NCBI GenBank assembly: GCA_965237415.1
Contig: CBDEFM010000001.1
Coordinates: 352,001-416,000 of the forward strand
Origin: Alphaproteobacteria bacterium
GTDB taxonomy: Bacteria; Pseudomonadota; Alphaproteobacteria; UBA828
DNA length: 64,000 bases
Reading direction: 5' to 3'
This document shows, piece by piece, positions 1 to 20,128 of the stretch. Every line of letters starts with the position of its first letter. Position 1 is the first letter of the stretch. A program made the position numbers and the translations under genes. Below the pieces are notes generated by a model, which worked only from the letters and a program-made list of their open reading frames with translations, did no database searches and had not been told where the DNA came from.

Positions 1-2741
1 GGCTCCTGCAACTGCACCGGGAAGGCGTGGGCCAGGAACTCGATGACGGTCTCCCTCGGCGTGAGGTCGACGGAGAGGTCGTCCCATTCCGATGCCGGGA
101 TCTCGGCGATGCGCCGCTCCAGCAGCGCCTCGCCGGTCGAGACGAGCTGGATCACCGCGGACCGGCCGGATGCGAGATCGGCCTCGATCGCGCGGATCAG
201 GCTCGGGCACTTCATGGCCGTCAACAGGTGCCCGAAGAAGCGCTGCTTCGCGCCCTCGAAGGCGCTCATTGCGGCCGACTTGGCGTTGCGGTTCAGGGTC
301 GACTCGTCGTCGACGATGCCGGTCGCCTTGAGCGCCTCCTGGATGTTCTTGTGGATGACCTTGAAGGCGCCGGCGTAGGCGTCGTAGATGCGCCGCTGTT
401 CCGGCGTCAGGGGGTGCTCCAGAATCTGGACCTCGACGCCGTCATAGGAGAGTGCGCGGGCCTGGTAGAGCCCGAGCGCCTTCAGGTCGCGCGCGACGAC
501 CTCCATTGCGGCGACCCCGCCCGCCTCCATCGCCGAGACGAAATCGGTGCGGGTCTCGAACGGCGTGTCGCCGGCGGCCCACAAGCCCAGCCGTCCGGCA
601 TAGGCGAGGCCCGGGACCGTGGTGGCCCCGGTCGCGGAGACATAGGCGATGCGGGCGTCGGGCAGCGCGTTCTGCAACCGCAGCCCGGCGCGGCCCTGCT
701 GCGACGGCTTGACCTCGCCGCGGTTGCCCTTCGACCCCGCCGCGTTCGCCATCGCATGCGCCTCGTCGAACACGATGACGCCGGCGAAGGCGTGGCGGTC
801 GTCCTCGTCCATGCCGCCGGCCAGCCATTCCACGATCTGGTCGAGCCGGGACTGCTTGCCCTGGCGGGCTGGCGAGCGCAGCGTCGCGTAGGTTGCGAAC
901 AGGATGCCTTGGCTGAGCGGGATGTCGGCGCCCTGGCGGAAGTTGGATATGGGGAACACGTCGTCCTCGGCTCCGCCGAGCGCGGTCCAGTCGCGGCGCG
1001 CGTCTTCGACCAGCTTGTCGGACTGTGAGAGCCACAGCGCCCGCCTCCTTCCGCGCAGCCAGTTGTCGAGCACCATGGCGGCGACCTGGCGGCCCTTGCC
1101 CGCGCCGGTGCCGTCGCCGAGCATCCAGCCGCGGCGGAACCGGACCGGCGCCGACAGCACTTCGCCGTCCGCGGTGACGGACTCGGTGTCGTCCGCGTCG
1201 TCGTCCTCGCCGCAGCGCTGGACGGTCTCCCAGCCCGAGCCGATGCGGTAGTCGGCGCCGAGATGGCGCGAATGGGCCTCGCCCGCCAATACGACGCTTT
1301 CGAGCTGGGCGTCGGAGAGGAGTCCCTCGCTCACCACGCGTTCGGGCAACATGGGGCGGTACGAAGGCGTCGGATGCGGCACCGCGGCCATGGCGCCGGA
1401 CTGCACCAACGGGGTGGGATGCTCGACGGCGCCGGGGATGCGCACGACACCCGGTCGCCATGCCTCGTAGGGGCCGGCGGTCGAAACGGCGGCGGGTGCC
1501 TCGGCACCGGAATCCGAAGGGCCGGTCTCGATGGCGAGCTCGGCGACCGGACCCCATTCATGGGCGGGCTTCGGAGATGCCGCCCCAGACTGTGCGGCGG
1601 CAGCGCGCTTGGCGGCGGGTTTGGGGATTGCGTTGCCGAACAAGTCCCGGCCGGGGCCGGTGACGGTGCGGACGGGTTCCGCCTGGACGGGCAGACGGGC
1701 CGGCACGCCGGCGATGACGGCGTCGAGCAGGGCGGCGGCGTTCTCCGCGCGGGCCTGCGCGTCGACCGCGATGCCGGGCGCCTCGCTGCGGTCGAGGACA
1801 GTAAGCCTGGTGTCGAAGCCGGTGCCGCGCCGGGCATAGGCCCGTCCGTCGATGGCCATCGTGAAAACGATGCGGGCGTTTCCCGCGAGTCTTGAGAAGG
1901 CGTCGCGCCAGGCGGTATCGCCGGGCACGCAATTGGCCGAGGTGATCGCGGCGAGCCGCCCGCCATAGGGCAGCATGGCGAAGGCCGAGCGGAGATGGCG
2001 CAGGTCGGCGTCGTGGCGGATGCTGGAAACACCCGGGGTTGCCGAGAACGGCGGGTTCATCAGGACGACGGTCGGCCGGATGCCCGGCAGGTGGTCGGCG
2101 ATGTTCTCGGCGTTGTGGCGGGTGACGCGGGTGGCGGGAAAGAGCTCGCCGAGGAGCCCGGCGCGCGCATTCGCGATCTCGTTCAGATGGAGCGCGCCGG
2201 TGGCCTGGTTGCCGAGGGCGCACTCGGCCATGACGGCCAGCATGCCGGTGCCGGCGGAGGGTTCGAGCACGACATCGCCCGGGCGGATGGCGGCGGCCCG
2301 GAGCGCGGCATAGGCAAGGGTGAGCGGTGTCGAGAACTGCTGGAGGCGGATTTGGTCCTCGGAGCGCTTGGTGTGCGAGGGCTCCAGAGCGCCAATCGCG
2401 GCCAGCATCGCCAGCATGCGGCGGGGTCCGTCCGGACCGGCGCCGGCCTGCCTGCGCATCGCACGCCCATAGCGCTGCACGAACAGCACCACGGCGGCTT
2501 CGGCGGCCTCATAGGCGTCCTTCCAGATCCAGCCGCCCTCGGCATCGCTGGCGCCGAAGGCGCGGGTCATGGCGGTGCGGATGGTGGCGGCGTCGAGGGG
2601 CCGGCCGGCTTCGAGGGCAGGAAGCAGGGTCCGGGCCGCGGCGATGAGCGCGCTCGGGCCGGCGGGCGCCGGGATGGCCGTCACGGTGTGGGTGGGATGC
2701 GGGCGCGCGGGTACGACCGCCGCCTGGGAGGCGTCGAGCAT
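1..2741 (-). CDS. Strawberry-notch-family methylase/helicase (N6-MTase + AAA_34 NTPase); partial, runs off the left edge
   Basis: ATG at 2741 with GGAGA RBS. The same frame (checked at several points) gives EPSAGTG and MNPPF (MTase motifs I/IV), LGDGTGAGKGRQ (Walker A), VIVFDEAHAM and YVSATGAT. Absent from the ORF track because it has no stop in the window. Confidence 0.88.
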   Translation of the reverse strand, partial: MLDASQAAVVPARPHPTHTVTAIPAPAGPSALIAAARTLLPALEAGRPLDAATIRTAMTRAFGASDAEGGWIWKDAYEAAEAAVVLFVQRYGRAMRRQAGAGPDGPRRMLAMLAAIGALEPSHTKRSEDQIRLQQFSTPLTLAYAALRAAAIRPGDVVLEPSAGTGMLAVMAECALGNQATGALHLNEIANARAGLLGELFPATRVTRHNAENIADHLPGIRPTVVLMNPPFSATPGVSSIRHDADLRHLRSAFAMLPYGGRLAAITSANCVPGDTAWRDAFSRLAGNARIVFTMAIDGRAYARRGTGFDTRLTVLDRSEAPGIAVDAQARAENAAALLDAVIAGVPARLPVQAEPVRTVTGPGRDLFGNAIPKPAAKRAAAAQSGAASPKPAHEWGPVAELAIETGPSDSGAEAPAAVSTAGPYEAWRPGVVRIPGAVEHPTPLVQSGAMAAVPHPTPSYRPMLPERVVSEGLLSDAQLESVVLAGEAHSRHLGADYRIGSGWETVQRCGEDDDADDTESVTADGEVLSAPVRFRRGWMLGDGTGAGKGRQVAAMVLDNWLRGRRRALWLSQSDKLVEDARRDWTALGGAEDDVFPISNFRQGADIPLSQGILFATYATLRSPARQGKQSRLDQIVEWLAGGMDEDDRHAFAGVIVFDEAHAMANAAGSKGNRGEVKPSQQGRAGLRLQNALPDARIAYVSATGATTVPGLAYAGRLGLWAAGDTPFETRTDFVSAMEAGGVAAMEVVARDLKALGLYQARALSYDGVEVQILEHPLTPEQRRIYDAYAGAFKVIHKNIQEALKATGIVDDESTLNRNAKSAAMSAFEGAKQRFFGHLLTAMKCPSLIRAIEADLASGRSAVIQLVSTGEALLERRIAEIPASEWDDLSVDLTPRETVIEFLAHAFPVQLQE

Positions 2742-2874
2742 GGCGTTCTCCGGATGGGAATTGGGTGAAACCGCCGGCGGTGCGGCGCGGGAGGGTCCTC
2801 CCGCACCGTCTCACCGGTCGTGACCGGGGACGGCTGCCCCGCCTCGTGGCGGCGGGGACCGGGGATGCGGGGGA

Positions 2875-3168
2875 TCAGGCGGCGGCGGTGTTCCGGCGCT
2901 CGGCCGCGCGGGCGCGGCAGGACTCGACCAGTTGGGCGTAGTCGGCGGGATCGAGCACGCGGGCGACGTCGAGCAAGTGCGCGAGTTGCAGGCCGATGAG
3001 CCGGACGGCGGGGTCGTCACGCTGCCGGCCGCCCTCGGCGAGAACCTGCCGGCAGGCGTGGTGCAGCGTGGCCGAGATACCGGACGGGTTGCAGGCTCCG
3101 GACTCGGCGATGATGAGCGCGTCGGCGTGCCGGTCGAATCCGGGTGGCGGGCCGTCGAGGGCGTTCAC
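2875..3168 (-). CDS. Hypothetical protein (~97 aa)
   Basis: GTG at 3168 overlaps the upstream TGA (GTGA coupling); protein-like sequence NALDGPPPGFDRHADALIIAESGACNPSG. Confidence 0.6.
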   Translation of the reverse strand: MNALDGPPPGFDRHADALIIAESGACNPSGISATLHHACRQVLAEGGRQRDDPAVRLIGLQLAHLLDVARVLDPADYAQLVESCRARAAERRNTAAA

Positions 3169-3503
3169 CGCGATGCCCTCCGAACCTTGTCGACGAGGCC
3201 GTCGACGACAACGGACTCCGCACGGCAGGCGTGGCCCCAGCCGCGGAGGTTGGCCTCGACGTCGGTCCACGAGCCGATGAGGGCGTTGAAGAACGGGTCG
3301 TCCGTGGTGGCGGCAAATACGCATCCGCCGGTCACCACGGCGCCGGTGATGGCGGGCTCGGTCATCGCCGGCCGTCCTATCAGGCAACAAAGCAGCGCTC
3401 CGAATGCGGGCGAGAGGTTCTCGGCCTTCGCGGGGTCCATCGGGTGCATGGCCGGCGGCGGGCCGGCGGGCGCGGCGTGTGCCGCGGTCTCGATGTGGGG
3501 CAT
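3165..3503 (-). CDS. Hypothetical protein (112 aa)
   Basis: AGGAG RBS upstream; coupled to the next gene. Confidence 0.6.
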   Translation of the reverse strand: MPHIETAAHAAPAGPPPAMHPMDPAKAENLSPAFGALLCCLIGRPAMTEPAITGAVVTGGCVFAATTDDPFFNALIGSWTDVEANLRGWGHACRAESVVVDGLVDKVRRASR

Positions 3504-3526
3504 GGTCGTCTCCTGCGTAAGATGAC

Positions 3527-3568
3527 GAAAAGAAAACGCCCCGCCCCGGAACGGGCCGGGACGGGGCG
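3527..3568 (-). terminator. Intrinsic terminator-like hairpin
   Basis: GC stem CGCCCCG-CCCCGG/CCGGGA-CGGGGCG followed on the minus strand by TTTTCTTTT, just after the DUF2958 gene. Confidence 0.5.
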
Positions 3569-3589
3569 AGAAGCGACGGGTCGAGGGGG

Positions 3590-3976
3590 TCAGGCCGTGG
3601 CGGTGGCGGTCTTGCGGCGGTTCGCGGTGGCCTCGAGCTCGGGGCCACGTTCGACGATTCGTCCGGCGGCGCGGGCGGCTTCGGCATACACCGACAAGCT
3701 GTATTTCGGACGAAAATGCAGATCCCGCTCGATGCCGAGGCCGAACCGGACGCGGATCGCGGCGATCTCGGCAAGGCTGCTGTATCCCAACTCCGGGGTG
3801 CCGAAGCCGAGACAGGCCAGACCGAACAGCGTGTCTCCGTCTTCATCGAGCTCCGCAAACAGCCACGTCGCCGCGCCGCACGGATTGAAAAATTTCAATG
3901 GCGGGGGGTGGTCCTGGTCTCGTTTCTTTCCGTTCGCGAGCAGCTTCTCCCGCAACGCTTTGGTGAGAAGTTTCAT
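3590..3976 (-). CDS. DUF2958-family protein
   Basis: LLANG..HPPPLKFFNPCGAATWLFAELD..LFGLACLGFGTPELGYSSLAEI..IERDLHF matches the DUF2958 pattern; GGAGG RBS. Confidence 0.85.
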   Translation of the reverse strand: MKLLTKALREKLLANGKKRDQDHPPPLKFFNPCGAATWLFAELDEDGDTLFGLACLGFGTPELGYSSLAEIAAIRVRFGLGIERDLHFRPKYSLSVYAEAARAAGRIVERGPELEATANRRKTATATA

Positions 3977-3988
3977 CGGGACCTCCGG

Positions 3989-5744: not shown

Positions 5745-6233
5745 TCAGTTGTCGAATCCGCAGATGCGAATCCGGGCCCGTCCTTCGGTGACCGTCACGT
5801 CCGGGCGGCCCCCGGGTCCGGGCGTGACGATGACGAGCGGTTTGTTGGCTGGGGGATGCGGCGGATCGCGCACCTCCGCGGTGACCGTGCCGGCGGTGCT
5901 CGCGAAACGCATGAGCACCCGCCCGCGGGTGACTTCGATACCGCCGCCGGGCTTTGCCGGGTCGGTGATGGTGACGATCGGCGGCTCGCCCTGCTCGGTG
6001 AAGCGGTCGGGCACCGGCAACGCGGTATCCGTGGCCCACGGATCGGCATCGGCGCCCTCGCACACGGCATCGACGTGCGAGTCGCCGCAATGGTCGAGGG
6101 AGCGCCAGGCATCGCTCTGGTTGGCGGCCTCGAGGGCCTTCTCCAGCGCCTCATCGAGGGTCTCCGCCTCGACGGTGACGGTGTTCGCGAAATACGCCGG
6201 ATACACACACTGGACAGTGAACGGTCTGGTCAT
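5745..6233 (-). CDS. Hypothetical protein (~162 aa)
   Basis: GTG/ATG start overlaps the GHKL gene stop; GAGG RBS; MTRPFTVQCVYPAYFANTVTVEAETLDEALEKA. Confidence 0.6.
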   Translation of the reverse strand: MTRPFTVQCVYPAYFANTVTVEAETLDEALEKALEAANQSDAWRSLDHCGDSHVDAVCEGADADPWATDTALPVPDRFTEQGEPPIVTITDPAKPGGGIEVTRGRVLMRFASTAGTVTAEVRDPPHPPANKPLVIVTPGPGGRPDVTVTEGRARIRICGFDN

Positions 6234-7981
6234 CACGCCACCTCTGCAACGGGCTCGCCCAGCGTGACCGTCACCTTGCGGTCGCGCACCGCGATGTCGA
6301 CGTCGCGGTCGCGGGGGAAGAGCCAGAAGATCTCGCGCGAGAGCGCATCGGCGATGGAAACCTTGCGTGCCTCGTCGTCCGAACAAAGAAGCCTCGTGGC
6401 AATGTGAAGGGCCTCGTGGTCGAAGTCCGCCCTTTGCCGGTCCCACGAGTCGGCGTCGGCGTCATCGGAAGGCGAGAAGAACCCGGCCCGCATCAGCTCG
6501 GCGAGCGCATGGGGTTCGAGAGTGCTGGCGATGGTCACCAGCGGCAGGGCGTCGCCGACCCACGACCAGGCTTCGCCGGCGAACGCGAGATCGGTGTCGA
6601 GGTCGACGATGCGCCCCGGCCCCTCGGCCGGCCTGACCGCGAGGCCGATGCAGATCGCGTCGGGCTGCTGCGGCAGGGGCGCCTGCGGCGCGCCCGTCCG
6701 GTCGGGCACGGGATACGTATCAAGGGCGCAGGCTCGCCCCCCGGCCGTGACCGTGGTGTGGATGTTGCGGACCCGGTCGAGCCGGTCGTACCACGCATAG
6801 CCTTCGAGACGGCGGTCGGTCTCGAACAGGCGGTCCGCGATGCCGGCCCGCTTCGCCGCGCGCGCAAACGCCTGAGCTTCCGGCGGCTCGGGGTCGCAGG
6901 CCATGACCAGCGCGCCATCGCCGACGGCGGCACGCTTCGGCGGCTCGCGCCAGTCGTCGACGTCGGCGAGGCTCGCGCGCCAGGGGCGAAGCTCGGCCGG
7001 CGGCGCGGCGATGTCGATGTCGGCCTCGTGCGCCCGCTTGCGGTCCTCGAAGCACGGGCGCGGGTCCGGATCGGCGGCCATGGCGCGGAAGATGGCAAGG
7101 CGCGCGGCCTCGCGCATCCCGGCAAGGAACGGCGTCTCGACCGCCTCCTTGCGGGCGGGCAGCACCAGCTCCAGGTCGGGGCAGTCGTCGATATCGGCGG
7201 CCACCGTCCACTGGGGACCATGCACGGCTTCGACGGTCGGCAGGCGGACGGCCACGGTGAGGCCGTGGAAGTTCACATCCGGGTCGTTCAGGCCGAAGCC
7301 GTTCCAGCGGTCCTTGAACACGCCGAAGACCAACCCCTGCCAACGCTCGGCATGCAGCGCGCCGTCGAGGAAGGCGCAGCGTTCGAGCGCCGCGCCGCCG
7401 GCCGGGGTGTCCGGCACGTTCTCGAAGAAGACCGGCAGCGGATAATGGCGCGCGGCGGTCTCGGCGGCCCGGCGGATGGCCTCGGCGGTCTCGGTCTCCG
7501 TCGCCTGGAAGGTGACGGCGGTGCCATAGCGCCAGGGCGCGGCATCGTCGGGATAAACGTGGGCTTCGGCTTCGCCCAGGAAGTGCGCGGGCGTCAGCTC
7601 GACACGCCAGCCCGGGGCGGGGTCGTAGCCCGTGGTCCGGGTCCGGGACGAGACGGTGCAGCCGCGTCGCGCGAGGCTCAGCATGCCCATGCCGGCGGCG
7701 TCCTCGCGGCGGACCAGGTCCTCGTTCCAGCCGTTCTCGCCGAACGACAGCAGGACGGACGCGTCGGCGATGCCGGCGCCATCGTCGGCGACGGTGACGG
7801 TCAGGGGGCCGGTCTCAGGGCCGCCGACGATGACGTGGACGCGCGTGGCGCCGGCCCGACGGCAGTTCTGAAAGGTCTCGGTGAAGATGTCCGCGAGCCC
7901 GGCGGCATACATCCTTGTGACGCGGCGGATGGCGCCGTCATGGACCCGCGCGCGGATGGGCGAGGCGATGGAATCGTTCAT
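6233..7981 (-). CDS. GHKL (HATPase_c/Hsp90-like) ATP-binding protein with uncharacterised C-terminal region
   Basis: ETFQNCRRAGA (N box), VADDGAGI (G1 box), DAAGMGMLSL (G2 box), GTAVTF; ATG at 7981 with GAGGAG RBS. Confidence 0.8.
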   Translation of the reverse strand: MNDSIASPIRARVHDGAIRRVTRMYAAGLADIFTETFQNCRRAGATRVHVIVGGPETGPLTVTVADDGAGIADASVLLSFGENGWNEDLVRREDAAGMGMLSLARRGCTVSSRTRTTGYDPAPGWRVELTPAHFLGEAEAHVYPDDAAPWRYGTAVTFQATETETAEAIRRAAETAARHYPLPVFFENVPDTPAGGAALERCAFLDGALHAERWQGLVFGVFKDRWNGFGLNDPDVNFHGLTVAVRLPTVEAVHGPQWTVAADIDDCPDLELVLPARKEAVETPFLAGMREAARLAIFRAMAADPDPRPCFEDRKRAHEADIDIAAPPAELRPWRASLADVDDWREPPKRAAVGDGALVMACDPEPPEAQAFARAAKRAGIADRLFETDRRLEGYAWYDRLDRVRNIHTTVTAGGRACALDTYPVPDRTGAPQAPLPQQPDAICIGLAVRPAEGPGRIVDLDTDLAFAGEAWSWVGDALPLVTIASTLEPHALAELMRAGFFSPSDDADADSWDRQRADFDHEALHIATRLLCSDDEARKVSIADALSREIFWLFPRDRDVDIAVRDRKVTVTLGEPVAEVA

Positions 7982-8011
7982 GGGCGGTCTCCTCAAACGA
8001 TGCGGAAACGA

Positions 8012-8088: not shown

Positions 8089-10593
8089 TCAGTGGACGCG
8101 GCGCAGGAACTCGGGGATCTCCAGCGCGTCGTCGGCCACGGTGCGGCCGTTGACGCGTCCGGGGTGCGGCACGGTCGCGTCCGTGTCGATCGCCTCGGCG
8201 AGCTGCGGGTCGGCCGGGGGTTCCTCCGGTCCGTCCCGTCCGTTCACCGGTTCCGGGCCGGCCTCGCCCTCCGCACGGGAGGGAGCCGCGTGGCCGTTGC
8301 CGTTGGCAGGGCCGTCCGGGACGTGCGCGTCGCCCGGCGCAGGCTCGGCGGAGTCGCCACTGCCGTTCGAAGCATCGACCGCACGGGCGACAGCGAGGCG
8401 TTCGGCGACAGCCGGCGAGTCGATGCTCTCGACCACCGACGTCGTGCGCGGCTTCTCCTCGGACTCGGATGTTGCCGTTGCATCCTCCGATGCGTCCGCG
8501 GGTTTCGCCGGCTCGTCCGCCACGGCGGGTTCGGCATTGGCGTCGTCTTCAACGCCGCCGCCCCCGTCGAACGCCGCGAAACCGGGCGGCGCCCAGGCGA
8601 GCGCGGCGGCATGCGCCGTGGCGCCGAGGCCGACCGGCGTGGCGCCGGCCGCGAACGCGGTCTCCATCGCGTCGGCGAGCTTCGTCTTCTTGTACTTCGC
8701 GCGCGCCGACGTCCAGGCTGCGCCGAACGTGTCTCTGGCGACGTCGAGGATGCGGCTCTTCGTGATGCGCGACCACAGCATGGCGGCGGTCGGCCGGACA
8801 TGCTTCGCGAAGTCGATGTCGAGCCGTGCGACGGTGGCTTCGAGCTCGGGCCGGGCGTCGTGCTCGAAGGCGAGCTGGCCCTTGACCGTGCGCGCGATCG
8901 CGGCCGCGAACAGCTTTTCCTTGTCGGACCGGGGCAATGCCCGGAGTGCTGCGAAGCAGGCCGCGTCGTCGTCCCCTTCCATCCACTCGAACGGCAGGTG
9001 CGACCAGTCGGCGAGCATTGCTTCGCCCGGGCTCCAGGCGGCGAAGTCCTCGTCGTTGGCCCGCATGGTGGGCCGGTCGGCGGTCTCGTTGAAGACGATG
9101 TCGAGCGCGTGATACGAGCCGGTGTAGCCGCGCGCGAACACGGCGCGCACGAGCTGGAACACCACGAGGTCGAAGGCGGCCTCGAAGTCCTCGGCCAGAT
9201 ACGCCTTCACGAGCGCGGTGCGGATGGCGCGCAGATCGTCGCCGAGCCCGATGCCGACGCCGGCTTCCGCGCGCGCCACGGCACGCGGGTCCACCGGTGA
9301 GGCGATCGGCGTCGTGATGGCGGGGCCGTCCACGCGTCCCGAATCTGTGCCGTCGCCATTTGCGCCGGTGCCGGCATCCTGGGCGTTGCTGTCGGCGGCG
9401 GGCTCCTTCGGCATGTCCTCGGGCTTCACCAACCCCTGGATGACCTGGAGCGAGCCGTCGCGCCCGACGGTGGCGATGCAGCCGGCAATCGCGAAATCCT
9501 CCCGCCGGAACGTCGCCCTCGCCTCGACATCGGCCTCGATCGCGTCGAGACGCGGCTCAATGGCTTCGGCCTCCTCGACCAGCTCGTCGGTCCAGTCGTC
9601 CTCGTCGAGGTTGACGAGCTCGTCATGGCGGAGCCGCAGCTTCTCGATCTCGGCGGTCTCCTCGGCCGTCGGCTGGCCGGGCTCGGGATGGATGCGGCCG
9701 TAGCGCGCGGTGGCGCTCCAGTCGACGTCCGGCACCGCCTCGGCCCACTTCCAGCGGGTCGCGAGCTCGTCGGCGGCGGCGGTTAGCTTCGCGATGGCGA
9801 GCTGGTTCAGAAGCGCCGGGTCCTCGAGCCAGACGCCGTTCTCGTGCTCGTCGGCGAAGAGGTCGCGCAACACCGGGCCGCCCGCGGCCTCGTAGGCGTC
9901 GACGCCGACATAGCGGGCCATGGCGGCGCCTGCCGGCACCCGTTCCTCGGTCAGCATGCGCTTCACCTGCCAGGCGCTCGGCCGGTGACCCTGGGCCGAG
10001 ACCTGCTCCCACACCGCGCGCTGGCGGTCGTGGTCGGTGGTGACGGCGAATGCCTTCAGCGTCTCGAGGTCGATCTCATCGGCGCGGTAGGCATCCAGCA
10101 GCTCGGGCGCGGCGTTGCCGAGCCGGAGGCGCTGCTCGACGATGCGCTCGCTGACGCCGAAACGCGCGGCGATGGAAGCCACCGTGACACCGGCCCCGGC
10201 GAGCTCGCTGAACGCGACCACCTGGTCGGCGGGGTGCATCGCGATGCGGATGACGTTCTCCGCGAGCGAGAGCTCGCCCGCATTGCCGTTCGCGGCGATC
10301 TTGCAGGGAACGGGGTGATCGGCATGGAGCGTGCCGTCCTCGGCGAGCGCCTTCAGCGCCGCGAGGCGGCGTCCGCCGGCGACGACGGCGAAGCATTCGA
10401 CGCCGTCATCATCCGCACCGTCGGCGCGGGCGACGAGGTTCTCCAGCAGGCCGTGGGCCTTGATGGACGCGCGGAGCTGGACCTGGGCGAAGTCGTCGGG
10501 CGGGGTCTTGCGCACGTTCTCGGGCGCAAGCGCGAGCCGGCAGAGCGGGATTTCCCGGATGAGCGGCTCGGGAGGGGAAGCGATCTGGTTCAT
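8089..10593 (-). CDS. parB: ParB/RepB/Spo0J-family protein (ICE/plasmid type, ~834 aa) with disordered tail
   Basis: ENVRKT, LRASIKAHGLLENL, VVAGGRRLAAL (ParB arginine patch), SLAENVIR..MHPADQ and HTH IAARFGVSERIVEQRLRL; ATG at 10593 with GGAG RBS; frame open upstream to ATG 11022. Confidence 0.88.
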   Translation of the reverse strand: MNQIASPPEPLIREIPLCRLALAPENVRKTPPDDFAQVQLRASIKAHGLLENLVARADGADDDGVECFAVVAGGRRLAALKALAEDGTLHADHPVPCKIAANGNAGELSLAENVIRIAMHPADQVVAFSELAGAGVTVASIAARFGVSERIVEQRLRLGNAAPELLDAYRADEIDLETLKAFAVTTDHDRQRAVWEQVSAQGHRPSAWQVKRMLTEERVPAGAAMARYVGVDAYEAAGGPVLRDLFADEHENGVWLEDPALLNQLAIAKLTAAADELATRWKWAEAVPDVDWSATARYGRIHPEPGQPTAEETAEIEKLRLRHDELVNLDEDDWTDELVEEAEAIEPRLDAIEADVEARATFRREDFAIAGCIATVGRDGSLQVIQGLVKPEDMPKEPAADSNAQDAGTGANGDGTDSGRVDGPAITTPIASPVDPRAVARAEAGVGIGLGDDLRAIRTALVKAYLAEDFEAAFDLVVFQLVRAVFARGYTGSYHALDIVFNETADRPTMRANDEDFAAWSPGEAMLADWSHLPFEWMEGDDDAACFAALRALPRSDKEKLFAAAIARTVKGQLAFEHDARPELEATVARLDIDFAKHVRPTAAMLWSRITKSRILDVARDTFGAAWTSARAKYKKTKLADAMETAFAAGATPVGLGATAHAAALAWAPPGFAAFDGGGGVEDDANAEPAVADEPAKPADASEDATATSESEEKPRTTSVVESIDSPAVAERLAVARAVDASNGSGDSAEPAPGDAHVPDGPANGNGHAAPSRAEGEAGPEPVNGRDGPEEPPADPQLAEAIDTDATVPHPGRVNGRTVADDALEIPEFLRRVH

Positions 10594-11154
10594 GGAAGTC
10601 TCCGTCGATGAGGGAAATGGCGCGGCACGCGGCCTCTCCGGCCCGCCCGCGTCCGCCCGGCCGGGGCTCGTCTCCGCCTCGACAGGGCGCGCAGGCGGGG
10701 ACACGGAAATGTCGGCGGGACTGTGGCCGAGAGCCCCGGTTGGGTCGGCCGGGTGGCACGGGAGGGTGGTTGCCGGCTCGACAGTTCGAGCCGGCGGGTC
10801 GGCCTGGTCCGCGGCGTCGTCGAGAAGGCGCGCGGCCTTGTGGAGCGCTGTGGCTGCATCGCGCATGCACCGGGCGCTCACCGGTATCTCGGGGTACAGG
10901 TCGGGATCGGAGGTCCAGGCAATCCAGAAGGACAGCCCGGCGAGGGCTTCGAGCGCCTGCCTGAGGGCCTCGGCAGGGGCGCCGTGGATGGCGCGTTCGA
11001 ATACGGTCCTGTCGCGGGACATGTCGGACTCCTCCGATGGCGGAAACCGGCCCACCGCCCCCGCGCCATGGCGAGGCACGGGCGGCACGGGGGCATGTGC
11101 GGATATGGCGGGCGCGGAATTGGCGGGGCCGGTCGCGGCCGGATAGCGGGCGCT

Positions 11155-12498
11155 TCAACCCGTGGGAATGTCGATGCGTTCGCCCCAGGGCTCGCGGTTC
11201 CAGTCCGACGGCGGGTCCGAATAGTTGACCCAGCAGACCCCGAAATCAGGCTCAACCTCGGGGTAGCTGGAGCACTCCATGTCCGTGAAATACAGGCACA
11301 CCCCCGGCCGGATACCCTGCTCGTCGAGCCAGGCGAAGCCCGGCCGGAAGTCGGTGCCGCCCCGGCCCCTGATCACGATCTCGTCGGGGAGATCGTCGGC
11401 GGTGTATTCGGCCGCGTCCTGTACCGCCGAGTCGACCTGGAGGACGATGACGCGCTCCGGCTGGATCTCGGTCGCGACCTCGCGCAGCTCGGCCCAGAAC
11501 TCGGCAAGGGTCGCCGCGGGGAGCGAGCCCGAGGTGTCGACGATGACCGCGATCGCGTCGATGCCCTCGGAGCGGATCGAGGGCAAATAGAGTCCCGAGT
11601 CGATGAAGCGCCGGTTGGGCAGGCTCCAGCTGTAGTCGCGGCGCGCGGCGTCGGTCATGTAGCGGCGCAGCAGCGCACGCCAATCCAGCATGCTGGCGTG
11701 GGCGCCCTTCACCGTCTCCTCGACCCCGCCCGGCGCCTTGCCCTCGGCCTTGGCGAGATTGAGGGCCTGATGCATGGCCTCGTCCCACGCCTGCTCCTCG
11801 GCGATGACATCCACCGGCGACTCGTCCGCCTCGCCGTTGCCGCCGCCGCGGGCGCCCGCGTCCATGATCTCTCCGGTGCCGGAGGGATCGTGGCTCGCCG
11901 GTGCGTCGGACCCATCGCCCTGGCCATCCCCGTCCTGGCCGTCCGCATCCTCGTCGCCGCCATCGTCCGGGGAAGCGGAGGAACTGTCCGACTCCCCGTC
12001 ATCGTCACCGGGCGGCGACGGGGCGACTGCTCCGGCGCCGGAGCTTCCGCCGGACGGCGCGTTGCCGTCGTCGCCGGGATCTCCGTCCTGCGGCTCGGTC
12101 AGGCGGTCGTAGGCCTGCTCGACACTGAGCCCGTCCCAAGCCTCGGCCTCGGGCGGCAGGGTGAAGCCCGCGTCGCGCACGAGCGCGTGGGTGACGAGCT
12201 GCGAGGCCTGCTGCCAGCGCTCCGGGTCGCGCTCGCCCCGGCGGGTGTGGTGCTTCAAGGCGCAGGCCATCACAACGCGTGCCATCGCGGTCTCGATGAC
12301 ATGGGCATCGGTGTCGGCGATCCAGCGGGGCGAGTAGCGGATCTCGTGCCCGTCGCTCGCCAGTGTCTCGCGGCTCGGATCGGCGCGGAGCGGGAGCCGG
12401 AGCGCGAGGCTGCCGAAGAAGGGCTGCTTGCGCAGGAGCTCGGTCACGGTGGCGCTGGTGCGCTGCGCCGATTCCGTCTGCACGCGGCCGGCCATCAC
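11155..12498 (-). CDS. DUF2201-type protein: metallopeptidase-like N-domain, acidic linker, vWA-like C-domain
   Basis: PFFGSLAL..TLASDG..HHTRRGERDPERW; vWA motifs VIVDTSGS, GRGGTDFRPGF and YFTD. Confidence 0.82.
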   Translation of the reverse strand: MMAGRVQTESAQRTSATVTELLRKQPFFGSLALRLPLRADPSRETLASDGHEIRYSPRWIADTDAHVIETAMARVVMACALKHHTRRGERDPERWQQASQLVTHALVRDAGFTLPPEAEAWDGLSVEQAYDRLTEPQDGDPGDDGNAPSGGSSGAGAVAPSPPGDDDGESDSSSASPDDGGDEDADGQDGDGQGDGSDAPASHDPSGTGEIMDAGARGGGNGEADESPVDVIAEEQAWDEAMHQALNLAKAEGKAPGGVEETVKGAHASMLDWRALLRRYMTDAARRDYSWSLPNRRFIDSGLYLPSIRSEGIDAIAVIVDTSGSLPAATLAEFWAELREVATEIQPERVIVLQVDSAVQDAAEYTADDLPDEIVIRGRGGTDFRPGFAWLDEQGIRPGVCLYFTDMECSSYPEVEPDFGVCWVNYSDPPSDWNREPWGERIDIPTG

Positions 12499-13406
12499 GC
12501 CGCCTCCCGTGCGGGCTCGGCGGCGGGTTCGGCCGGGGCCGCGAAGTAGCCCGCGAACTTCTCCATCAGCGCATCGGCGTCGCGCTTCACGCGGGTGCGG
12601 GCGAGTGGGTCGAAGCTCCGCGACGGGCGCAGCGTATCGGGATCGACACTCGCGATCTTGTCCTTCACCTGCTCGCAGAGGCGCGCGAGATCGTCGTCGC
12701 CGAAGATGTTGAGACGTGGCACAACGTCAACGAGCTCGCGGATGTTCGCGATCATGGAGTCGCGGAACACCAGCGGCTTGCCGTTCTCGTCCTCCTGCAG
12801 GCGCTCGGAGACGCGCTCGACGGCCTCGCCGAAGCGGCGGTAGAGGTCGCCCACCGCACCGTGCAGGCGCTCCTCGATCTGTTGCTCGATGTCGCGCTTG
12901 ACCCGTTCGATGTCGTCCGTCGCGAGCTTGGCCATGAACTGCTCGGCGTCCTCGACCGCAGTGATGCGGTAGCGGATGGAGAACTTGCCCCGCAGCGCCT
13001 CCTTCGAGGGATAGTCCTCGATGCGGAAGAGCTTGCCGAGGTCGAGGCGGGCCTGGTCGATGTTCTCGTCGTAGTCCTCGATGAAGCGGGCGCGCTCGCG
13101 CACGATGCGCTCGCGGAAGCCGTCCATGAGCGCGGTGTAGCGGTCGTAGTTGGCGACGGTGAGGAGGCGCAAGCCCTGGTCGTCCCAGGGAAGCGTCTGC
13201 TCGTAGTGGGTCGAGCGAATCTTGCTCACGGTTGCCGTCAGGGCGGCGAAGGCGGCCTTGGGCAGGAGGCGTTTGTTGTAGCGCCCGGCGCTGGCCGCGG
13301 CGTCGTGGTGGGCGGCGACGTGGTTCGAGGCCTGGCGGTCGTAGAGCCGGCCGGACCAGGCGGTGATGCGCAAGCTGACCTGCATGGCGTCGTCGGTGAG
13401 GTTCAT
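12495..13406 (-). CDS. DUF3150-like helical protein
   Basis: WSGRLYD, NKRLLP, TLPWDDQGLRLL and DYPSKEALRGKF; sits between the MoxR AAA and vWA genes. Confidence 0.65.
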   Translation of the reverse strand: MNLTDDAMQVSLRITAWSGRLYDRQASNHVAAHHDAAASAGRYNKRLLPKAAFAALTATVSKIRSTHYEQTLPWDDQGLRLLTVANYDRYTALMDGFRERIVRERARFIEDYDENIDQARLDLGKLFRIEDYPSKEALRGKFSIRYRITAVEDAEQFMAKLATDDIERVKRDIEQQIEERLHGAVGDLYRRFGEAVERVSERLQEDENGKPLVFRDSMIANIRELVDVVPRLNIFGDDDLARLCEQVKDKIASVDPDTLRPSRSFDPLARTRVKRDADALMEKFAGYFAAPAEPAAEPAREAA

Positions 13407-13425: not shown

Positions 13426-13575
13426 TTACCGGAGCGTCCACACGGGCACGCCCAGGGTCCGGGCGAGCTTCTCTCTCGCCGCTTCGAGGCTGGATGCGCG
13501 CACCTTGTATTCGCGCGAACCCCGCCTGCCGGCGGGGTAGTGGGTGATGCGCCAGAGCATGGCTTCCTCCGTCAT
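13426..13575 (-). CDS. Small hypothetical protein (49 aa)
   Basis: ATG at 13575 overlaps the AAA gene stop (ATGA); MTEEAMLWRITHYPAGRRGSREYKVRASSLEAAREKLARTLG. Confidence 0.45.
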   Translation of the reverse strand: MTEEAMLWRITHYPAGRRGSREYKVRASSLEAAREKLARTLGVPVWTLR

Positions 13576-14852: not shown

Positions 14853-15152
14853 ATGCCAGTCATGACCGGTTGGAGCGACAACATCGAGGCCGTCGCGCGT
14901 GCCGTGTGCGCGAAGAGGCTGGCGCATGACGGCATTAGCGAGGAGCAGCTCGCTGCCGACGTAGACATGTGGTGGCACTTGACTGCGGCGGAGCTCGAAT
15001 GCGGGGTCATCGACGAGACCGGGGAGTACGTGGGCGACGAGATCGACTGGAAACGCAATATGGACGGTTACCGCGACTGGATGCGCCGCCATCCCGAGAG
15101 CCGCGCGGTCTGGGAGACCGCCCGGTACGGGGCGCCGCTACCGCGAAATTGA
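14853..15152 (+). CDS. Hypothetical acidic protein (99 aa)
   Basis: Only plus-strand gene in the run; Trp/Asp/Glu-rich, protein-like sequence. Confidence 0.55.
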   Translation: MPVMTGWSDNIEAVARAVCAKRLAHDGISEEQLAADVDMWWHLTAAELECGVIDETGEYVGDEIDWKRNMDGYRDWMRRHPESRAVWETARYGAPLPRN

Positions 15153-16015
15153 TGGATGCCGCGGCCGGGCGGAGACGTGCTTGCGAAGGCCGAGCGCCCG
15201 GCGCGCCGACGCCGCATCGGCGTCCACGGGAATGCCGGTCAGGTCCGGCAGGTACTGCCGCGTGGGCGACAGGGTGTGACCGATTCGCCGTTCGAGGGCC
15301 GCGTATTTGACGTAGAGATCGGGGCGCAGCTCGGCCGCGCGGCGCAAGTCTGGTCGCGATGCGAAAATGCAGAACGAGCACGAGCATCTCGACAACCCGA
15401 ATGAGTAAACGGGGTGCGGCGATTGGCCGGCCTCGGCGATGATGCGGAAGACGTCTTCTGTGGTGAGCTCGAACACCGGCAGCCAGTCAAAGACCTCACG
15501 GCCCGCGACGCTCATGCGCTCGTTGCGGCGCCACGGGATGCGCCTGGCGCGCCCTCGGCTCTCGTCGCGCCGCAAGCCGAGGGCGTTGACGAGCCGTCCT
15601 TCGAAGCGGGGATGGGCTTTCAGGTAGCGGCGGAGCCGCGCTGGATAGGTCCGCGCTTCGCATCCGACGTGCACCATCTTGCTGATTTCGAGGGCCACAT
15701 CCCCCTCTCCTCGACGCGTTCGAGCAAGGTCTTGCCGGAGGCGACGGGAGCCGTGATGAGCGGCACGCCCGGCGGAATCGTGTTCTCGATATGCGCGATG
15801 GTGCCAGGCCACTCCACCTCGCCCAGGGGGGCATGAACGACGAGAAGCTGCTCGCGGGGAACGAGCTGCGAGAGCAGGACCGTCATGGATTGGCTGTCCT
15901 TGCCGCCGGAGTGATTGACGGCGACGAGAGTGCCGCGCCGGATCATGTCGCGGCACTCGGGAGGAATGGAAATATCGGAAGTGGGACGGCGATGAAGCGG
16001 AGTGCGCGTGCTCAT
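15138..16015 (-). pseudogene. PAPS-reductase-family protein, frameshifted
   Basis: SGGKDS and RWCTSDAKRGPI in ORF 15620..16015; GLRRDESRGR and SRCSCSFC in the next frame. One base missing near 15636 (cgc g-g ctc instead of cgc gag ctc) would join them. Confidence 0.8.
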
Positions 16016-16251
16016 GCCTCGTGTCCGTCGTGGTCAGTGAGGACCATGAATTTCGGAATCGAAACGAAGATCGGCGCGATCTGGTATCCGGTCTCGGCAT
16101 GGTGGTTGTCGGGCTCATGTCCGGTAGTGGCGACGATTGCTGCTGCGGGTTCGCCGTTCACGTGGGAACTAAATGGAGCGAAGTAGTCGTAGTCACCGCT
16201 CATGAGTGTCTGGAAGGCGCGCCGGTGTTCCTCGGTGATGTTGGTCGTCAT
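16012..16251 (-). CDS. Hypothetical protein (79 aa)
   Basis: ATG at 16251 with AGGGA RBS; stop overlaps the PAPS-reductase ATG (ATGA). Confidence 0.6.
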   Translation of the reverse strand: MTTNITEEHRRAFQTLMSGDYDYFAPFSSHVNGEPAAAIVATTGHEPDNHHAETGYQIAPIFVSIPKFMVLTDHDGHEA

Positions 16252-16874: not shown

Positions 16875-16965
16875 GTAACGGACAGTCTCCGCCAAAGAGG
16901 AACGGCAGATGCATCCTTACACCGTTCGTGGGGCTAGGTGACGAATCGTCAACGTGGCGGATTCA

Positions 16966-18015
16966 ATGAAGTTGACCGACTTAAAACGACACATACAGGA
17001 GCACTTTCGTGACCGACTGGTTGCGGTGGTCGGGTCCGGGCTGTCGGCGGCCGAGGGTTTGCCCACAATGGTTCAGCTCGAATCCCATCTCCGAACGGAA
17101 GTCCCAAAGCATCTACCGGCTGGGTCGGCTGGAGAGTGGAAGCGAGTCGAGGCAGAGCTTGCAGTCGGAGACGGCCTCGAAGCAGCACTTCATCGTGTCC
17201 AGATTTCGGAAGACCTGGGAGCCACGATTCTCTCCCTAACCGGTACGTACGTTTTGGAATGCGAACGCGAGGTTATACGAAGCGCAGTGGCCGGCGAACG
17301 GATTCTAAGGTTCGCCAGCCTATTGCCCTACTTGAATCCCAAGCCCAATGATCCCGTTTCGGTTGTAACCGTCAACTACGATCGCCTGGTTGAGCTCGGT
17401 GCAGAGATTTCAGGCTGGGGTGTGGACACAATGTTTATAGGGACAAGATTTGGGGTCTTGGACCCTGCCCTCAGCGAACGGTCGTTCGTCCAGGACATCG
17501 CCCGGAGACCCAAGGGCGGGTATCGGTTGATCTACAGAAATCGCATTCGTGTCTACAAACCACACGGAAGTCTCGACTGGTTCAAGAGCGATCGAGGTCC
17601 GTTGTACTGCCCAATTGACTTTCCGGGCGAACGTCTGATCGTAACGCCTGGTGTGACGAAGTATCGGCAGGGCTACGAGCGTCCCTTTGATATACACCGG
17701 GAGAAGGCCAATGAGCAAATCGATGCCTGTCGGCGGCTATTCTGCGTGGGCTATGGGTTTAACGACGACCACCTGCAGGTCCACCTGAGGGACAAGATGC
17801 GGGCGGGTACACCGACTTTAATACTCACTCGAACCTTATCGACGTCAGCCATGGATCTAATTGAACAGTCTTCCGGTGCTATTGCGGTGTCCAACAACGA
17901 AGAAGACCCGACAGGTTCGACAATAGTGGTAGTAACGGCGACTGACTCGGAGGTGATTGCAGCTCCACCTCTGTGGGACCTCGCTGTACTCATCGATGAG
18001 GTACTTTCACCATGA
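16966..18015 (+). CDS. SIR2-like (SIR2_2) NADase, Sir2-HerA defence effector
   Basis: VVGSGLSAAEGLP, VTVNYDRLVE, YKPHGSLDW and VGYGFND motifs. Confidence 0.85.
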   Translation: MKLTDLKRHIQEHFRDRLVAVVGSGLSAAEGLPTMVQLESHLRTEVPKHLPAGSAGEWKRVEAELAVGDGLEAALHRVQISEDLGATILSLTGTYVLECEREVIRSAVAGERILRFASLLPYLNPKPNDPVSVVTVNYDRLVELGAEISGWGVDTMFIGTRFGVLDPALSERSFVQDIARRPKGGYRLIYRNRIRVYKPHGSLDWFKSDRGPLYCPIDFPGERLIVTPGVTKYRQGYERPFDIHREKANEQIDACRRLFCVGYGFNDDHLQVHLRDKMRAGTPTLILTRTLSTSAMDLIEQSSGAIAVSNNEEDPTGSTIVVVTATDSEVIAAPPLWDLAVLIDEVLSP

Positions 18016-19781
18016 CCGAAGCAGCCCTGCAATTTGGCGACCAGGACCGTATAGGTCGGGTTATTGCGGTAGACACAAGCCGCGTAGCGATTGACGTTGA
18101 AGACCATGGGCTAATGACCACCTTGGCCGTTGGCAATTTGGTCGCCATCCGAGGTTTGACAGCACAGGAATTTTTGATCGGCATTATCGAAAGAGCCACC
18201 CGAAGCGTTCGAGAGGAACTGCTGACGGAAGACGCTGATGAAGAGGGCAACGTTCCGGTTGGCGAGGTACAGGAGGACATAATCCGGGCCGTACTTGTTG
18301 GAACGTTCCGGGTGCTCGATGGGGACATTGTAAATATTTTCAAGCGAGGCGCGGATTCATTTCCACAGATTGACCGCGAGTGTTTTCTTATTTCAGCAGC
18401 AAATCTGCAACGGTTCATGAATTTACTGAGTGCCAATGTTGAGGAAGGGGAGAGACTTCAGCTTGGCCAGTACGTATCAGATAGCAATGCAATTGCAATC
18501 GCAAATGGTGACAAGTTCTTTCAAAGACATGCAGCCGTACTAGGCAGTACGGGTTCGGGTAAGAGTTGGTGCACGGCGCTGATCCTGGAGCGCGCCAGTA
18601 AACTTGCGCATCCCAATCTCATCGTGCTGGACATGCACGGGGAGTATTCTCCGATAGCCGACGAATGTAAGGGATACGCAGCGCAGTTTCGTATCGCTGG
18701 CCCAGGGGACCTGGAAGCGCCGACGAATGAGAACGTATTCTTGCCATACTGGTTACTCAATCGAGAAGAAATGCTTGCCATGATTCTCGATCGGAGTGAT
18801 CAAAATGCTCCCAACCAAGCGTCACGTTTCACGCACCACGTTAAGGAGTTGAAGGACCAGACACTTGACGAAGCGGGAAAGCAAGATGTGCGAAAGACCT
18901 TCACCGTCGATTCTCCAGTATTCTATTCTCTTGACGAACTACTAAAGCGGCTTGAATCGGACGATAGTGGCATGAAACCTGGTGCTGGGAAAAACTTAAT
19001 TAAGGGTGATTGGAATGGAAAGCTGACCAGATTCGTTGCCCGACTAAAAGCGAAGGTCGATGATCGTCGCTATGGATTCATGTTTCGCCCACCCGTTGAA
19101 TCGGCACGTTACGAGTGGTTGGGAGAGCAAGTCGTTAGGCTGCTCGACTCGTCGGAGAAGCGACGTGGGATTAAGGTTGTCGACTTCTCGGAAGTCCCCT
19201 CAGATGTGCTTCCCGTCGTGGCTGGTGTTTTTGCCCGACTATTGTATGACGCACAGTTTTGGATTGAGAAAGCCAGTCGTACACCGATTTGCTTGGTATG
19301 TGACGAGGCTCACCTGTACCTGCCGGTGAAGGCCGAGGCTGAAGCAGTGGAACGGCGGGCACTCGAAACGTTCGAGAGAATCGCCAAGGAGGGGCGCAAG
19401 TATGGCGTTGCCTTGATGGTTGTGAGTCAGCGACCATCAGATGTGAGCCGCACCATTTTGAGTCAATGCAACAATTTTCTGGTTCTAAGATTGACGAACG
19501 ACCAAGATCAGTCAGTCGTAAGAAGGCTGATGCCGGATTCAATGGTCAGTTTCACGGAGATGCTGCCGCTGCTGGAAACTGGGGAGGCGCTGCTCTTGGG
19601 AGACGCTGTCCTTCTTCCAACAAGAATTCGCCTTGATGTTCCTGAACTGAAGCCCGCAAGTGCCACCCGAGATTTCTGGACAGAATGGCGAGAGCGAACC
19701 CCGAAGGAGAAAGCGATTCAAGACGCAATTGAGACATTGCGTCGGCAAAGTCGTTTGAACTCCCAGGATGGAGGTTGCTAG
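18012..19781 (+). CDS. herA: HerA/FtsK-family ATPase (DUF87)
   Basis: N-terminal HAS-barrel-like region, RHAAVLGSTGSGKS, LDMHGEY, CDEAHLY, EGRKYGV and SQRPSD; ATGA-coupled to the SIR2 gene. Confidence 0.88.
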   Translation: MTEAALQFGDQDRIGRVIAVDTSRVAIDVEDHGLMTTLAVGNLVAIRGLTAQEFLIGIIERATRSVREELLTEDADEEGNVPVGEVQEDIIRAVLVGTFRVLDGDIVNIFKRGADSFPQIDRECFLISAANLQRFMNLLSANVEEGERLQLGQYVSDSNAIAIANGDKFFQRHAAVLGSTGSGKSWCTALILERASKLAHPNLIVLDMHGEYSPIADECKGYAAQFRIAGPGDLEAPTNENVFLPYWLLNREEMLAMILDRSDQNAPNQASRFTHHVKELKDQTLDEAGKQDVRKTFTVDSPVFYSLDELLKRLESDDSGMKPGAGKNLIKGDWNGKLTRFVARLKAKVDDRRYGFMFRPPVESARYEWLGEQVVRLLDSSEKRRGIKVVDFSEVPSDVLPVVAGVFARLLYDAQFWIEKASRTPICLVCDEAHLYLPVKAEAEAVERRALETFERIAKEGRKYGVALMVVSQRPSDVSRTILSQCNNFLVLRLTNDQDQSVVRRLMPDSMVSFTEMLPLLETGEALLLGDAVLLPTRIRLDVPELKPASATRDFWTEWRERTPKEKAIQDAIETLRRQSRLNSQDGGC

Positions 19782-20128
19782 CTGTGGGAAATGGGATGCG
19801 TGGTGCTGTATCCGTTTCCGGGAAAAAGTTGCACTACCTGCCGGAGTCGATCAACGGACGAGCACAATTTGTACATCGAACGGTGTCGGTGATTTGTCAA
19901 TGGCGAAGATATGCGAGGGCAAGGGACGGAGCAAGAGAGTGCCAGCTTGGTTTTGGGCGCGGCTGAGCGTTCGCTCGGTTCGGACTGGGAGCTCCGGTGC
20001 GTCAGGCTTCTCCGGACGCCGGTTGATCTCCTTCCGGGGGGGCTGCTTGGTAGTGGAGGACCGAATGGCGCCTAGCCGCTGTGCCGCGGCTGCACAGTCG
20101 ATATCCGCCTAACGGAGGTCTGTTTGGG

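Follow-up and report, generated by a model that had tools for sequence, protein, structure and literature searches.

The C-terminal peptide of the cell division protein FtsZ is a hub that is read by membrane anchors, division inhibitors and proteases. Binding to FtsA, ZipA, MinC, SlmA or ClpX through such a peptide is known for FtsZ itself only. Of the DNA-bound nucleoid-occlusion factors, Noc links DNA to the membrane so that division stays clear of the nucleoid, and SlmA takes hold of the FtsZ tail. BisD, a ParB-like clamp that uses cytidine triphosphate (CTP), reportedly activates genes of integrative and conjugative elements (ICEs). Here, we describe a ParB-like gene (8089..10593, minus strand) whose product ends in a look-alike of the FtsZ C-terminal peptide. 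It lies in a stretch of 64,000 nucleotides of an alphaproteobacterial genome (G000:C1:352001-416000); this whole stretch is called the window, and positions are those of the window unless a contig or locus is named.

The closest described relatives belong to the HerB/YfjB/YfhA/ParB2 family. The F-plasmid protein YfjB was renamed HerB in a July 2026 bioRxiv preprint, which describes a CTP-binding dimer that bears a helix-turn-helix (HTH) and a new D4 dimerization domain (PMC13370423). According to the same source, production of HerB begins as soon as the plasmid has entered; the protein binds to the chromosome of its host, reprograms transcription, makes nucleoid foci and acts just after transfer, and the HerB/ParB2 family is never accompanied by its own ParA (PMC13370423). 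FtsZ and ClpX are unmentioned in the main text of the preprint, which has “cell division” in one reference title and gives the short C-terminal tail no role (PMC13370423). The related ParB2 of pED208 has been reported to be delivered to recipients via the type IV secretion system (T4SS), with Cre-ParB2 yielding approximately 1e-3 recombinants per donor (PMC8406263). A precedent for an ICE that stops host division has been described in the ParA-Shi system of ICEclc (PMC6812849).

Read from the ATG at 10593, the ParB-like open reading frame (ORF) encodes 834 amino acids (aa) and has the C-terminal end DDALEIPEFLRRVH*. The genome holds one match to FtsZ_C, on contig C2, where the host FtsZ ORF (locus L001, 703..2733) ends in STNDPLDIPAFLRRQAN, also given as ...NDPLDIPAFLRRQAN. 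The general consensus of FtsZ C-terminal peptides, [DE]-[IV]-P-x-[FY]-[LM]-[RK], is found near the C-terminus of both proteins (LEIPEFLRRVH* in the ParB-like protein, LDIPAFLRRQAN* in the host FtsZ); the FtsZ tails of six genomes were compared here. The two tails have L-[D/E]-I-P-x-F-L-R-R in common. Many close homologues carry DPL[DE]IPEFLRR, in which 10 of 11 residues equal those of the host FtsZ (DPLDIPAFLRR). When both contigs of the 4.75 Mb genome were scanned in six frames (approximately 28 million six-frame residues), the pattern [DE]IP.FL[RK][RK] had exactly two matches, the end of FtsZ and the end of the ParB-like protein. The looser pattern [DE][IVL]P.[FY][LM][RK][RKG] again matched exactly these two proteins, and the matches end two and three residues ahead of the stop codon. 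With only two six-frame matches, the resemblance is therefore a specific match and not a common word of a high-GC genome. The first-pass annotation had pointed to this terminal peptide, followed by a stop, and to a low-complexity linker rich in Ala, Pro, Glu, Asp and Gly ahead of it (residues approximately 676-820); both were confirmed. Its further claim, that the motif and the layout of a disordered linker followed by a peptide reproduce those of FtsZ, is borne out by the sequence, by the structure prediction given below and by the uniqueness of the match in the genome.

Conservation was followed with a strict tail pattern, [DE][IVL]P[AE]FL[RH][RG] within the last 14 residues, and a core pattern, [IVL]P.F[LM]. 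Among 120 close database homologues (72-100% identity), 114 carry the strict pattern and 116 the core pattern, and the other four have an unrelated or truncated C-terminal sequence. A scan of one genome per species gave 68 genomic loci at 38-79% identity. The strict tail stands at the end in 54 of them and the core alone in seven; the seven with neither pattern are partial matches, truncated frames or a contig end. In an alignment of 57 sequences with identities down to 50%, P827, F829 and L830 never vary, and each of R831, R832, V833 and H834 is conserved to 90% or more. Averaged over columns, the commonest residue has a frequency of 0.85 in the protein core, 0.57 in the linker and 0.87 over the last 13 residues. 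Past the core motif W..PGF, the linker measures 74-185 aa among homologues, and the residues past the tail motif differ by sub-clade (VH, VQ, T, S, GD, VAQ, IAS, A or none). The AlphaFold2 confidence (pLDDT) is below 50 for residues 669-770 and 772-834, by which the linker and tail are predicted to be disordered. The comparison of homologues that the earlier annotation had proposed was thus passed, with the terminal motif kept while the linker diverges.

This pattern of selection resembles that of FtsZ: a near-invariant [DE][IVL]P.FLR core, zero to three variable last residues and a variable linker. An accident would be hard to reconcile with a core that is fixed between a linker and last residues that vary freely, and with a match that the genome repeats in FtsZ only. 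Judged from these alignments, the FtsZ-tail-like motif is real and selected, and what it does we infer. The linker also contains semi-conserved NG[HR] repeats, with N766, G767, N815 and G816 at least 90% conserved in the same 57 sequences, and most homologues have a conserved block, AIDAMNAVPTADGGPRVIV, 20-30 residues ahead of the tail (8134..8300, minus strand, and homologues). The repeats or this block may be a second docking site.

The gene encodes, by its sequence, a ParB-fold protein of the HerB/YfjB/ParB2 type. The clade alignment was compared with YfhA of an IncI plasmid (652 aa), which is encoded between ssb and psiB and was used as a stand-in for F-plasmid HerB; hhalign gave a probability of 99.9% and an E value of 1.6e-35 (residues 13-647 against 36-622), and the match spans the HTH and the D3 and D4 (dimerization) domains specific to the family. 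By BLASTP, a leading-region relative is 35% identical over residues 15-360. The GxxRxxA box is present (VVAGGRRLAAL), and G73, R75 and R76 are invariant in the 57 sequences. The N-terminal ~200 residues match the N-terminal domains of Spo0J, Noc and ParB in the PDB (E 2.7e-14 to 2e-6), and these matches end by residue 202; Pfam HTH_ParB scores 20.4 bits, just below its cut-off of 22.6. By tblastn against plasmids, homologues are found in at least 5000 records, and 3780 of the 5000 listed are typed as conjugative. By homology with its relatives, the protein is probably a CTP-dependent dimeric DNA clamp, and homology with the F-plasmid protein would place its expression around transfer.

The first-pass annotation had read the protein as a ParB of a ParA-independent partition system. 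On contig C1, the contig of the element, there is no match to PF13614 (AAA_31), the sole ParA family searched, and the two matches in the genome are both on C2. The absence of a ParA was accordingly upheld for that family. The partition reading was not: the core belongs to the HerB/YfhA family, for which a ParA of its own is never found. A canonical ParABS partition ParB was also considered and rejected. No AAA_31 ParA lies adjacent on C1, and the partition models score far below their cut-offs (NCBIfam PRTRC_parB, 61 bits against 278.6; PRK13832, 55.6 against 640), matching the N-terminal 200-250 residues only. Since the element carries an integrase and is integrated, segregation of the plasmid type is not an obvious need.

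The start of the protein may lie further upstream. The frame is open to 11154, and the database representative of this sequence has 977 aa. A long form (>930 aa) is found in 40 of 121 proteins (the window's own P0001 and P0002 counted), and its first segment is conserved at the protein level in the 25 of these 40 that were aligned. This segment of approximately 70 aa is helical. Some loci have a stop codon about 20 codons upstream of M1, for example L058 (853-aa frame). The upstream extension may belong to the protein. The genome also holds a second copy (C2:2286355-2288334), which was rejected as an intact paralogue; it is 65% identical over residues 9-662, is joined after that to the C-terminal portion of a GHKL gene in a different frame, and is a tail-less deletion remnant. 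At this decayed locus (L012, G000:C2:2286355-2289834), a deletion has taken away linker and tail together with most of the GHKL gene, and a homologue of the small ORF at 5745-6200 of the window follows.

Directly downstream of the ParB-like gene lies the GHKL-type ATPase gene that the first-pass annotation had noted, now supported by Pfam, motif and structure matches. The Pfam match to HATPase_c is weak (18.5 bits). The Bergerat-fold motifs are intact in an alignment of 45 sequences: the N-box (E40, N44), DxGxG (D72, G73, G75) and G102/G104. The AlphaFold2 model has a mean pLDDT of 83.8, and its top Foldseek matches are TRAP1/Hsp90, MutL/MLH1 and MORC2 (E 4e-9 to 1e-6), which suggests an Hsp90/MutL/MORC-like fold. 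A homologue of this gene is found downstream in 61 of the 68 loci.

The reading favored here, tentatively and with a little less than even confidence, is docking of the clamp, through the motif, on a host reader of the FtsZ tail, with FtsA as the first candidate. In its favor we count the near identity of the tail to that of the host FtsZ, the uniqueness of the match, the FtsZ-like pattern of selection, the predicted disorder, and the precedents of HerB, pED208 ParB2 and ParA-Shi given above. HerB-type clamps are carried by conjugative elements in a block next to the relaxase, alongside ssb. In the present clade, the HerB-type core has gained a disordered linker of ~160 aa that ends in a copy of the core of the FtsZ C-terminal peptide ([DE]-[IVL]-P-x-F-L-R-R). 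Through this tail, the clamp on its DNA would attach to one of the host proteins whose usual ligand is the tail of FtsZ; FtsA is the most likely receptor because all host phyla seen have it. With many clamps loaded on DNA, many tails would be on display. These could tether the DNA of the element or of the nucleoid to the membrane-bound division machinery, or could compete with FtsZ for its anchor and delay division during transfer or establishment. The element may, in this way, plug into the division or proteolysis machinery of its host. We infer every binding step of the docking scheme. A bolder version, which we think rather unlikely, would make HerB-clade clamps across phyla a universal “FtsZ-tail plug”. 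Arrays of clamps would capture FtsA and other readers; the incoming or excised element would thereby be coupled to the division site, or anchoring of the Z-ring would be held back until its establishment. This would be a nucleoid occlusion by mobile elements that works in any host via a highly conserved peptide, with the GHKL ATPase remodeling or releasing the clamp.

A complex prediction with FtsA (residues 8-392) and the tail (795-834) gave a score of 0.00 in two runs without controls, and is counted neither way. A phmmer search of the PDB with the last 28 residues (E up to 10) had no matches, the query being too short for the method. The host ftsA adjoins ftsZ. Its frame (locus L005, 1150..2760) lacks an ATG, GTG or TTG in the 40 codons ahead of the conserved N-terminus, and its homologues have 420 aa; an unusual start codon or an extended N-terminus may account for this.

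Several observations weigh against docking on a host reader of the FtsZ tail. Some come from the wider family. A survey of the best 150 representatives at the 50% clustering level found the core motif within the last 14 residues in 41, within the last 60 but not at the end in eight, and nowhere in 101, many of which are fragments or frame-shifted calls. A homologue is present in 42 of the 401 genomes searched (400 sampled from the phylum plus the window's own, which is among the 42). For the distant members, the ends of 39 loci from 35 other genomes were compared (L013-L051; 31-43% identity), and none of the 39 has an FtsZ-like C-terminal end. In 12 of them, [IVL]P.F[LM] does occur within the last 60 residues, typically as [DE]LP[AED]FL followed by acidic residues. 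The LPxFL of these distant members stands 15-25 aa from the end and is followed by acidic, not basic, residues, so the ancestor of the motif need not have been a mimic of FtsZ. The ends of plasmid members (L008-L011) are LPAFLSGDAA (Sulfitobacter), ...AAVAA (Sphingopyxis), ...SRPAA (Burkholderia) and ...LADAA (E. coli). By these comparisons, an acidic tail with a conserved extreme end is frequent in the family, and the LPxFL element is older than the clade of the window. What is limited to a clade at about 50% or more identity to this protein is the FtsZ-like form, in which the motif closes the protein and RR comes after it. Separately, 35 of the 39 distant loci end in ...AA or ...AAE (e.g., VAAE, IAAE, LAA, HAA); this conserved end might serve as a signal for turnover or for transfer throughout the HerB-like family.

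The hosts supply points on both sides. The 68 loci are labeled Alpha- and Gammaproteobacteria, Dehalococcoidia, Nitrospinota, Binatia or unclassified bacteria, and all are from metagenome-assembled genomes (MAGs). Host labels are uncertain, since the binning of mobile elements in MAGs is error-prone, and the wide spread over phyla means that the element either transfers very broadly or was mis-binned. In favor of docking, loci labeled Alpha- and Gammaproteobacteria, Dehalococcoidia and Nitrospinota retain the tail, and the FtsZ tails of the hosts checked are of the same general type (DVPTFLRKQVD, NIPDFLR). Differences between host FtsZ proteins are, however, tracked by the tail in none of five genomes, a small sample with uncertain MAG labels. 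Two genomes labeled Gammaproteobacteria have FtsZ NPVPTHLRKQVD, which lacks the Phe, against the tails DVPEFLRRVAQ and DVPEFLRRIAS. A genome labeled Nitrospinota and one labeled “bacterium” have FtsZ DDLDVPTFLRKQVD against the tails DIPEFLHGD and DIPEFLRGD, and a genome labeled Dehalococcoidia has FtsZ NIPDFLRIDLPPVLRR... against the tail LDVPAFLRRS. The missing co-variation neither proves nor kills mimicry. A recent capture of the 3' end of this host's ftsZ was rejected: 22 of 33 bases are identical over the motif, and the codon choices differ. At these loci (L052-L119), close relatives of the whole module are 55-79% identical and often occur in several copies per genome.

The GHKL gene adds a last point on this side. 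It accompanies 60 of the 61 tail-bearing loci, the exception being a contig of 2.1 kb, versus none of the 43 distant loci, for 39 of which the search covered just 1-1.5 kb downstream. Since tail and GHKL gene are inherited together, the GHKL protein is itself a candidate receptor of the tail. A tail that binds a protein of the element's own, namely this ATPase or, as a signal for transfer, the type IV coupling protein, would make the likeness to FtsZ coincidental. We regard this alternative as doubtful. It draws on the co-occurrence of tail and GHKL gene, neither of which is found at any distant locus; this carries little weight, given that the loci are kin and the association may be a single inherited event. 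The pED208 ParB2 is described as a T4SS substrate (PMC8406263), C-terminal signals, positively charged ones especially, are reported to support transfer in the F system (PMC11288057), and the present element has an F-type T4SS with a TraD-like coupling protein. Yet the last 25 residues here have a net charge of about zero. Some distant relatives, such as that on the Sulfitobacter plasmid, have LPxFL but no GHKL gene, and an accidental match to the FtsZ peptide at 8-10 of 11 positions is unlikely in view of the two matches among all six-frame residues of the genome.

The tail could also be a degron, an option that the first-pass annotation had listed beside a delay of division; it would copy the part of FtsZ recognized by ClpXP or ClpAP, so that the clamp is cleared after establishment or with the cell cycle. 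This would still be mimicry of FtsZ, with a protease as the receptor and turnover, not tethering, as the result; we judge it unlikely. The AA and AAE ends resemble C-terminal ClpX signals of the ssrA/CtrA type. Their presence in most distant homologues suggests that a turnover signal is a trait of the family and was replaced in this clade, but to our knowledge a terminal Glu (AAE) is no known ClpX signal. The FtsZ of Caulobacter has been reported to be degraded by ClpXP and ClpAP, and to be stabilized by a C-terminal tag or by changing the last two residues to DD (PMC4285227). Clp degrons, however, usually need the very last residues, and here these vary while the upstream [DE][IVL]P.FLR is fixed. 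With a fixed core and free last residues, a docking motif therefore fits better than a terminal-carboxylate degron. Least probable of all, and by our estimate very improbable, is a resemblance of no specific consequence, in which a generic amphipathic end aids folding, solubility or self-association of the clamp. Short ends that are hydrophobic and basic are common, the first-stage scan took in so many windows that some chance look-alikes are expected, and the complex prediction gave nothing usable. The invariance of P827, F829 and L830, the conservation of R831 and R832, the retention of the tail in 54 of 68 loci labeled as different phyla and the divergence of the linker all point instead to a specific partner.

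By gene content, the ParB-like gene is carried by an integrated conjugative element with an F-type T4SS. The element is taken as integrated because of the tyrosine integrase listed in Table 1, which probably marks its right-hand end; housekeeping genes of the xanthine-dehydrogenase type begin at ~30978. Upstream on C1 lie the F-type transfer genes, encoding TraC, TraU, TraN, TraH, TraG, the TraD-like coupling protein and a TrwC relaxase. A block on the opposite strand encodes YAcAr, DUF7146-Toprim, NADAR, a 2OG-Fe(II) oxygenase, SSB, strawberry notch and DUF2958, and continues with the GHKL gene, the ParB-like gene, DUF2201 (VWA-like), a MoxR-like ATPase and a PAPS-reductase-like gene. From these genes, the block would occupy a “leading region” position. 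Homologues of the upstream module (DUF2201, the 303-aa ORF and the MoxR-like gene) were found in at least 36, at least 28 and at least 24 of the 68 loci, respectively, within a flank of 4 kb. An island of lower GC content (16954..21361, plus strand; 52-60% GC), part of the low-GC cargo at 16-22 kb, carries SIR2-like, HerA-like helicase and Mrr-type restriction endonuclease genes, which are probably anti-phage defense cargo.

Table 1. Features of the ParB-like gene and its neighborhood in the window.
Feature	Position	Strand	Basis or remark
Strawberry-notch-like helicase (AAA_34, E 4.6e-110; N-terminal 936 aa in the window, continuing to C1:350245) and DUF2958 (E 4.1e-39)	1..3988	-	Pfam
GHKL-type ATPase gene	6233..7996	-	Directly downstream of the ParB-like gene; likely ATG at 7981 after GAGGAG
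Terminal peptide DDALEIPEFLRRVH with TGA stop	8089..8133	-	Sequence and translation; look-alike of the FtsZ C-terminal peptide
Acidic, Ala/Pro/Gly-rich linker predicted to be disordered, residues ~676-820	8134..8568	-	pLDDT, column conservation
ParB-like core, residues 1-675	8569..10593	-	ParB/Srx CTP-binding domain (GGRRLAAL), HTH, helical middle domain, C-terminal helical domain ending AWAPPGF
In-frame upstream extension (977-aa form)	10594..11022	-	Conserved ~70-aa segment (FERAIHGAPAEALRQALEALAGLSFWI...), then a variable low-complexity stretch
DUF2201_N and DUF2201 gene (metallopeptidase-like and VWA-like)	11155..12498	-	Pfam
303-aa ORF with no Pfam family	12495..13406	-	Pfam scan
MoxR-like AAA+ gene	13572 to 15092 at most (start not fixed; 13575-14600 scanned)	-	Pfam
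Weak PAPS-reductase-like gene	15138..16118		Beyond the MoxR-like gene
Tyrosine integrase (Arm-DNA-bind_3 and Phage_integrase)	25317..26564	-	Pfam

The subject is relevant to the fields of cell division and conjugation. If the tail binds FtsA or ClpX, it would provide a concrete molecular entry to the way in which a conjugative element disturbs the division of its host or sets the lifetime of its establishment factor, and would give the newly described HerB family a second activity. In that case, the tail would also be a natural and portable peptide with which the FtsZ-tail interface could be probed across many phyla. If the tail binds its GHKL partner instead, the pair would define a new two-protein module of conjugative elements, composed of a ParB clamp and a GHKL ATPase. 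In full-text literature, no protein of a mobile element that copies the FtsZ C-terminal peptide was found, and IPAFLRK appeared only in papers on FtsZ itself. The pairing of a ParB clamp with a GHKL ATPase was absent from the literature matches on the tail, no search having been aimed at the pair. The family itself is not new, and a characterization of its F-plasmid member has recently appeared; what appears to be new is the FtsZ-like end, together with the long linker and the GHKL gene paired with it, all undescribed in the searchable literature, supplements aside.

How does the locus compare with the systems described above? The protein shares with HerB and YfhA homology over the whole core, the GGRRLAAL motif and the HTH, and its gene stands in a same-strand block with ssb beside the relaxase, with no ParA of its own (AAA_31 on C1). 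The HerB-family proteins of E. coli stop ~25 aa past RWVPGWM... and end in ...LADAA, whereas the present protein continues into a disordered extension of ~160 aa with an FtsZ-like end. The leading regions of IncF and IncI plasmids have the order ssb-parB2-psiB-psiA; here, a GHKL ATPase gene follows in place of psiB and psiA, and the element is integrated. ParA-Shi of ICEclc is likewise a ParB-related system carried by an ICE that acts on host growth or division and not on segregation (PMC6812849); BisD, with its reported action on gene expression, is another such system. The proteins and the mechanism are different ones, and by its description Shi is set apart as a membrane-enriched partner of ParA for which no FtsZ-like peptide is reported (PMC6812849).

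The tail itself compares most closely with FtsZ. Both have the core [DE]-[IV]-P-x-F-L-R-[RK], placed C-terminally with few variable residues after it, on a long disordered linker of variable length. The tail of the ParB-like protein sits on a DNA clamp, unlike that of FtsZ, which sits on a tubulin-like polymer, and its position 4 is mostly Glu where FtsZ has Ala. Noc is, like this protein, a CTP clamp of the ParB family, and Noc structures (7nfu, 7ng0) are among the PDB matches of the N-terminal domain. The likeness is one of possible mode and not of membership: NCBIfam nucleoid_noc scores 33.6 bits against a cut-off of 315, and the present protein belongs to a mobile element. By analogy with Noc and SlmA, a DNA-bound clamp that displays FtsZ-like tails would act on the same interface from the opposite side.

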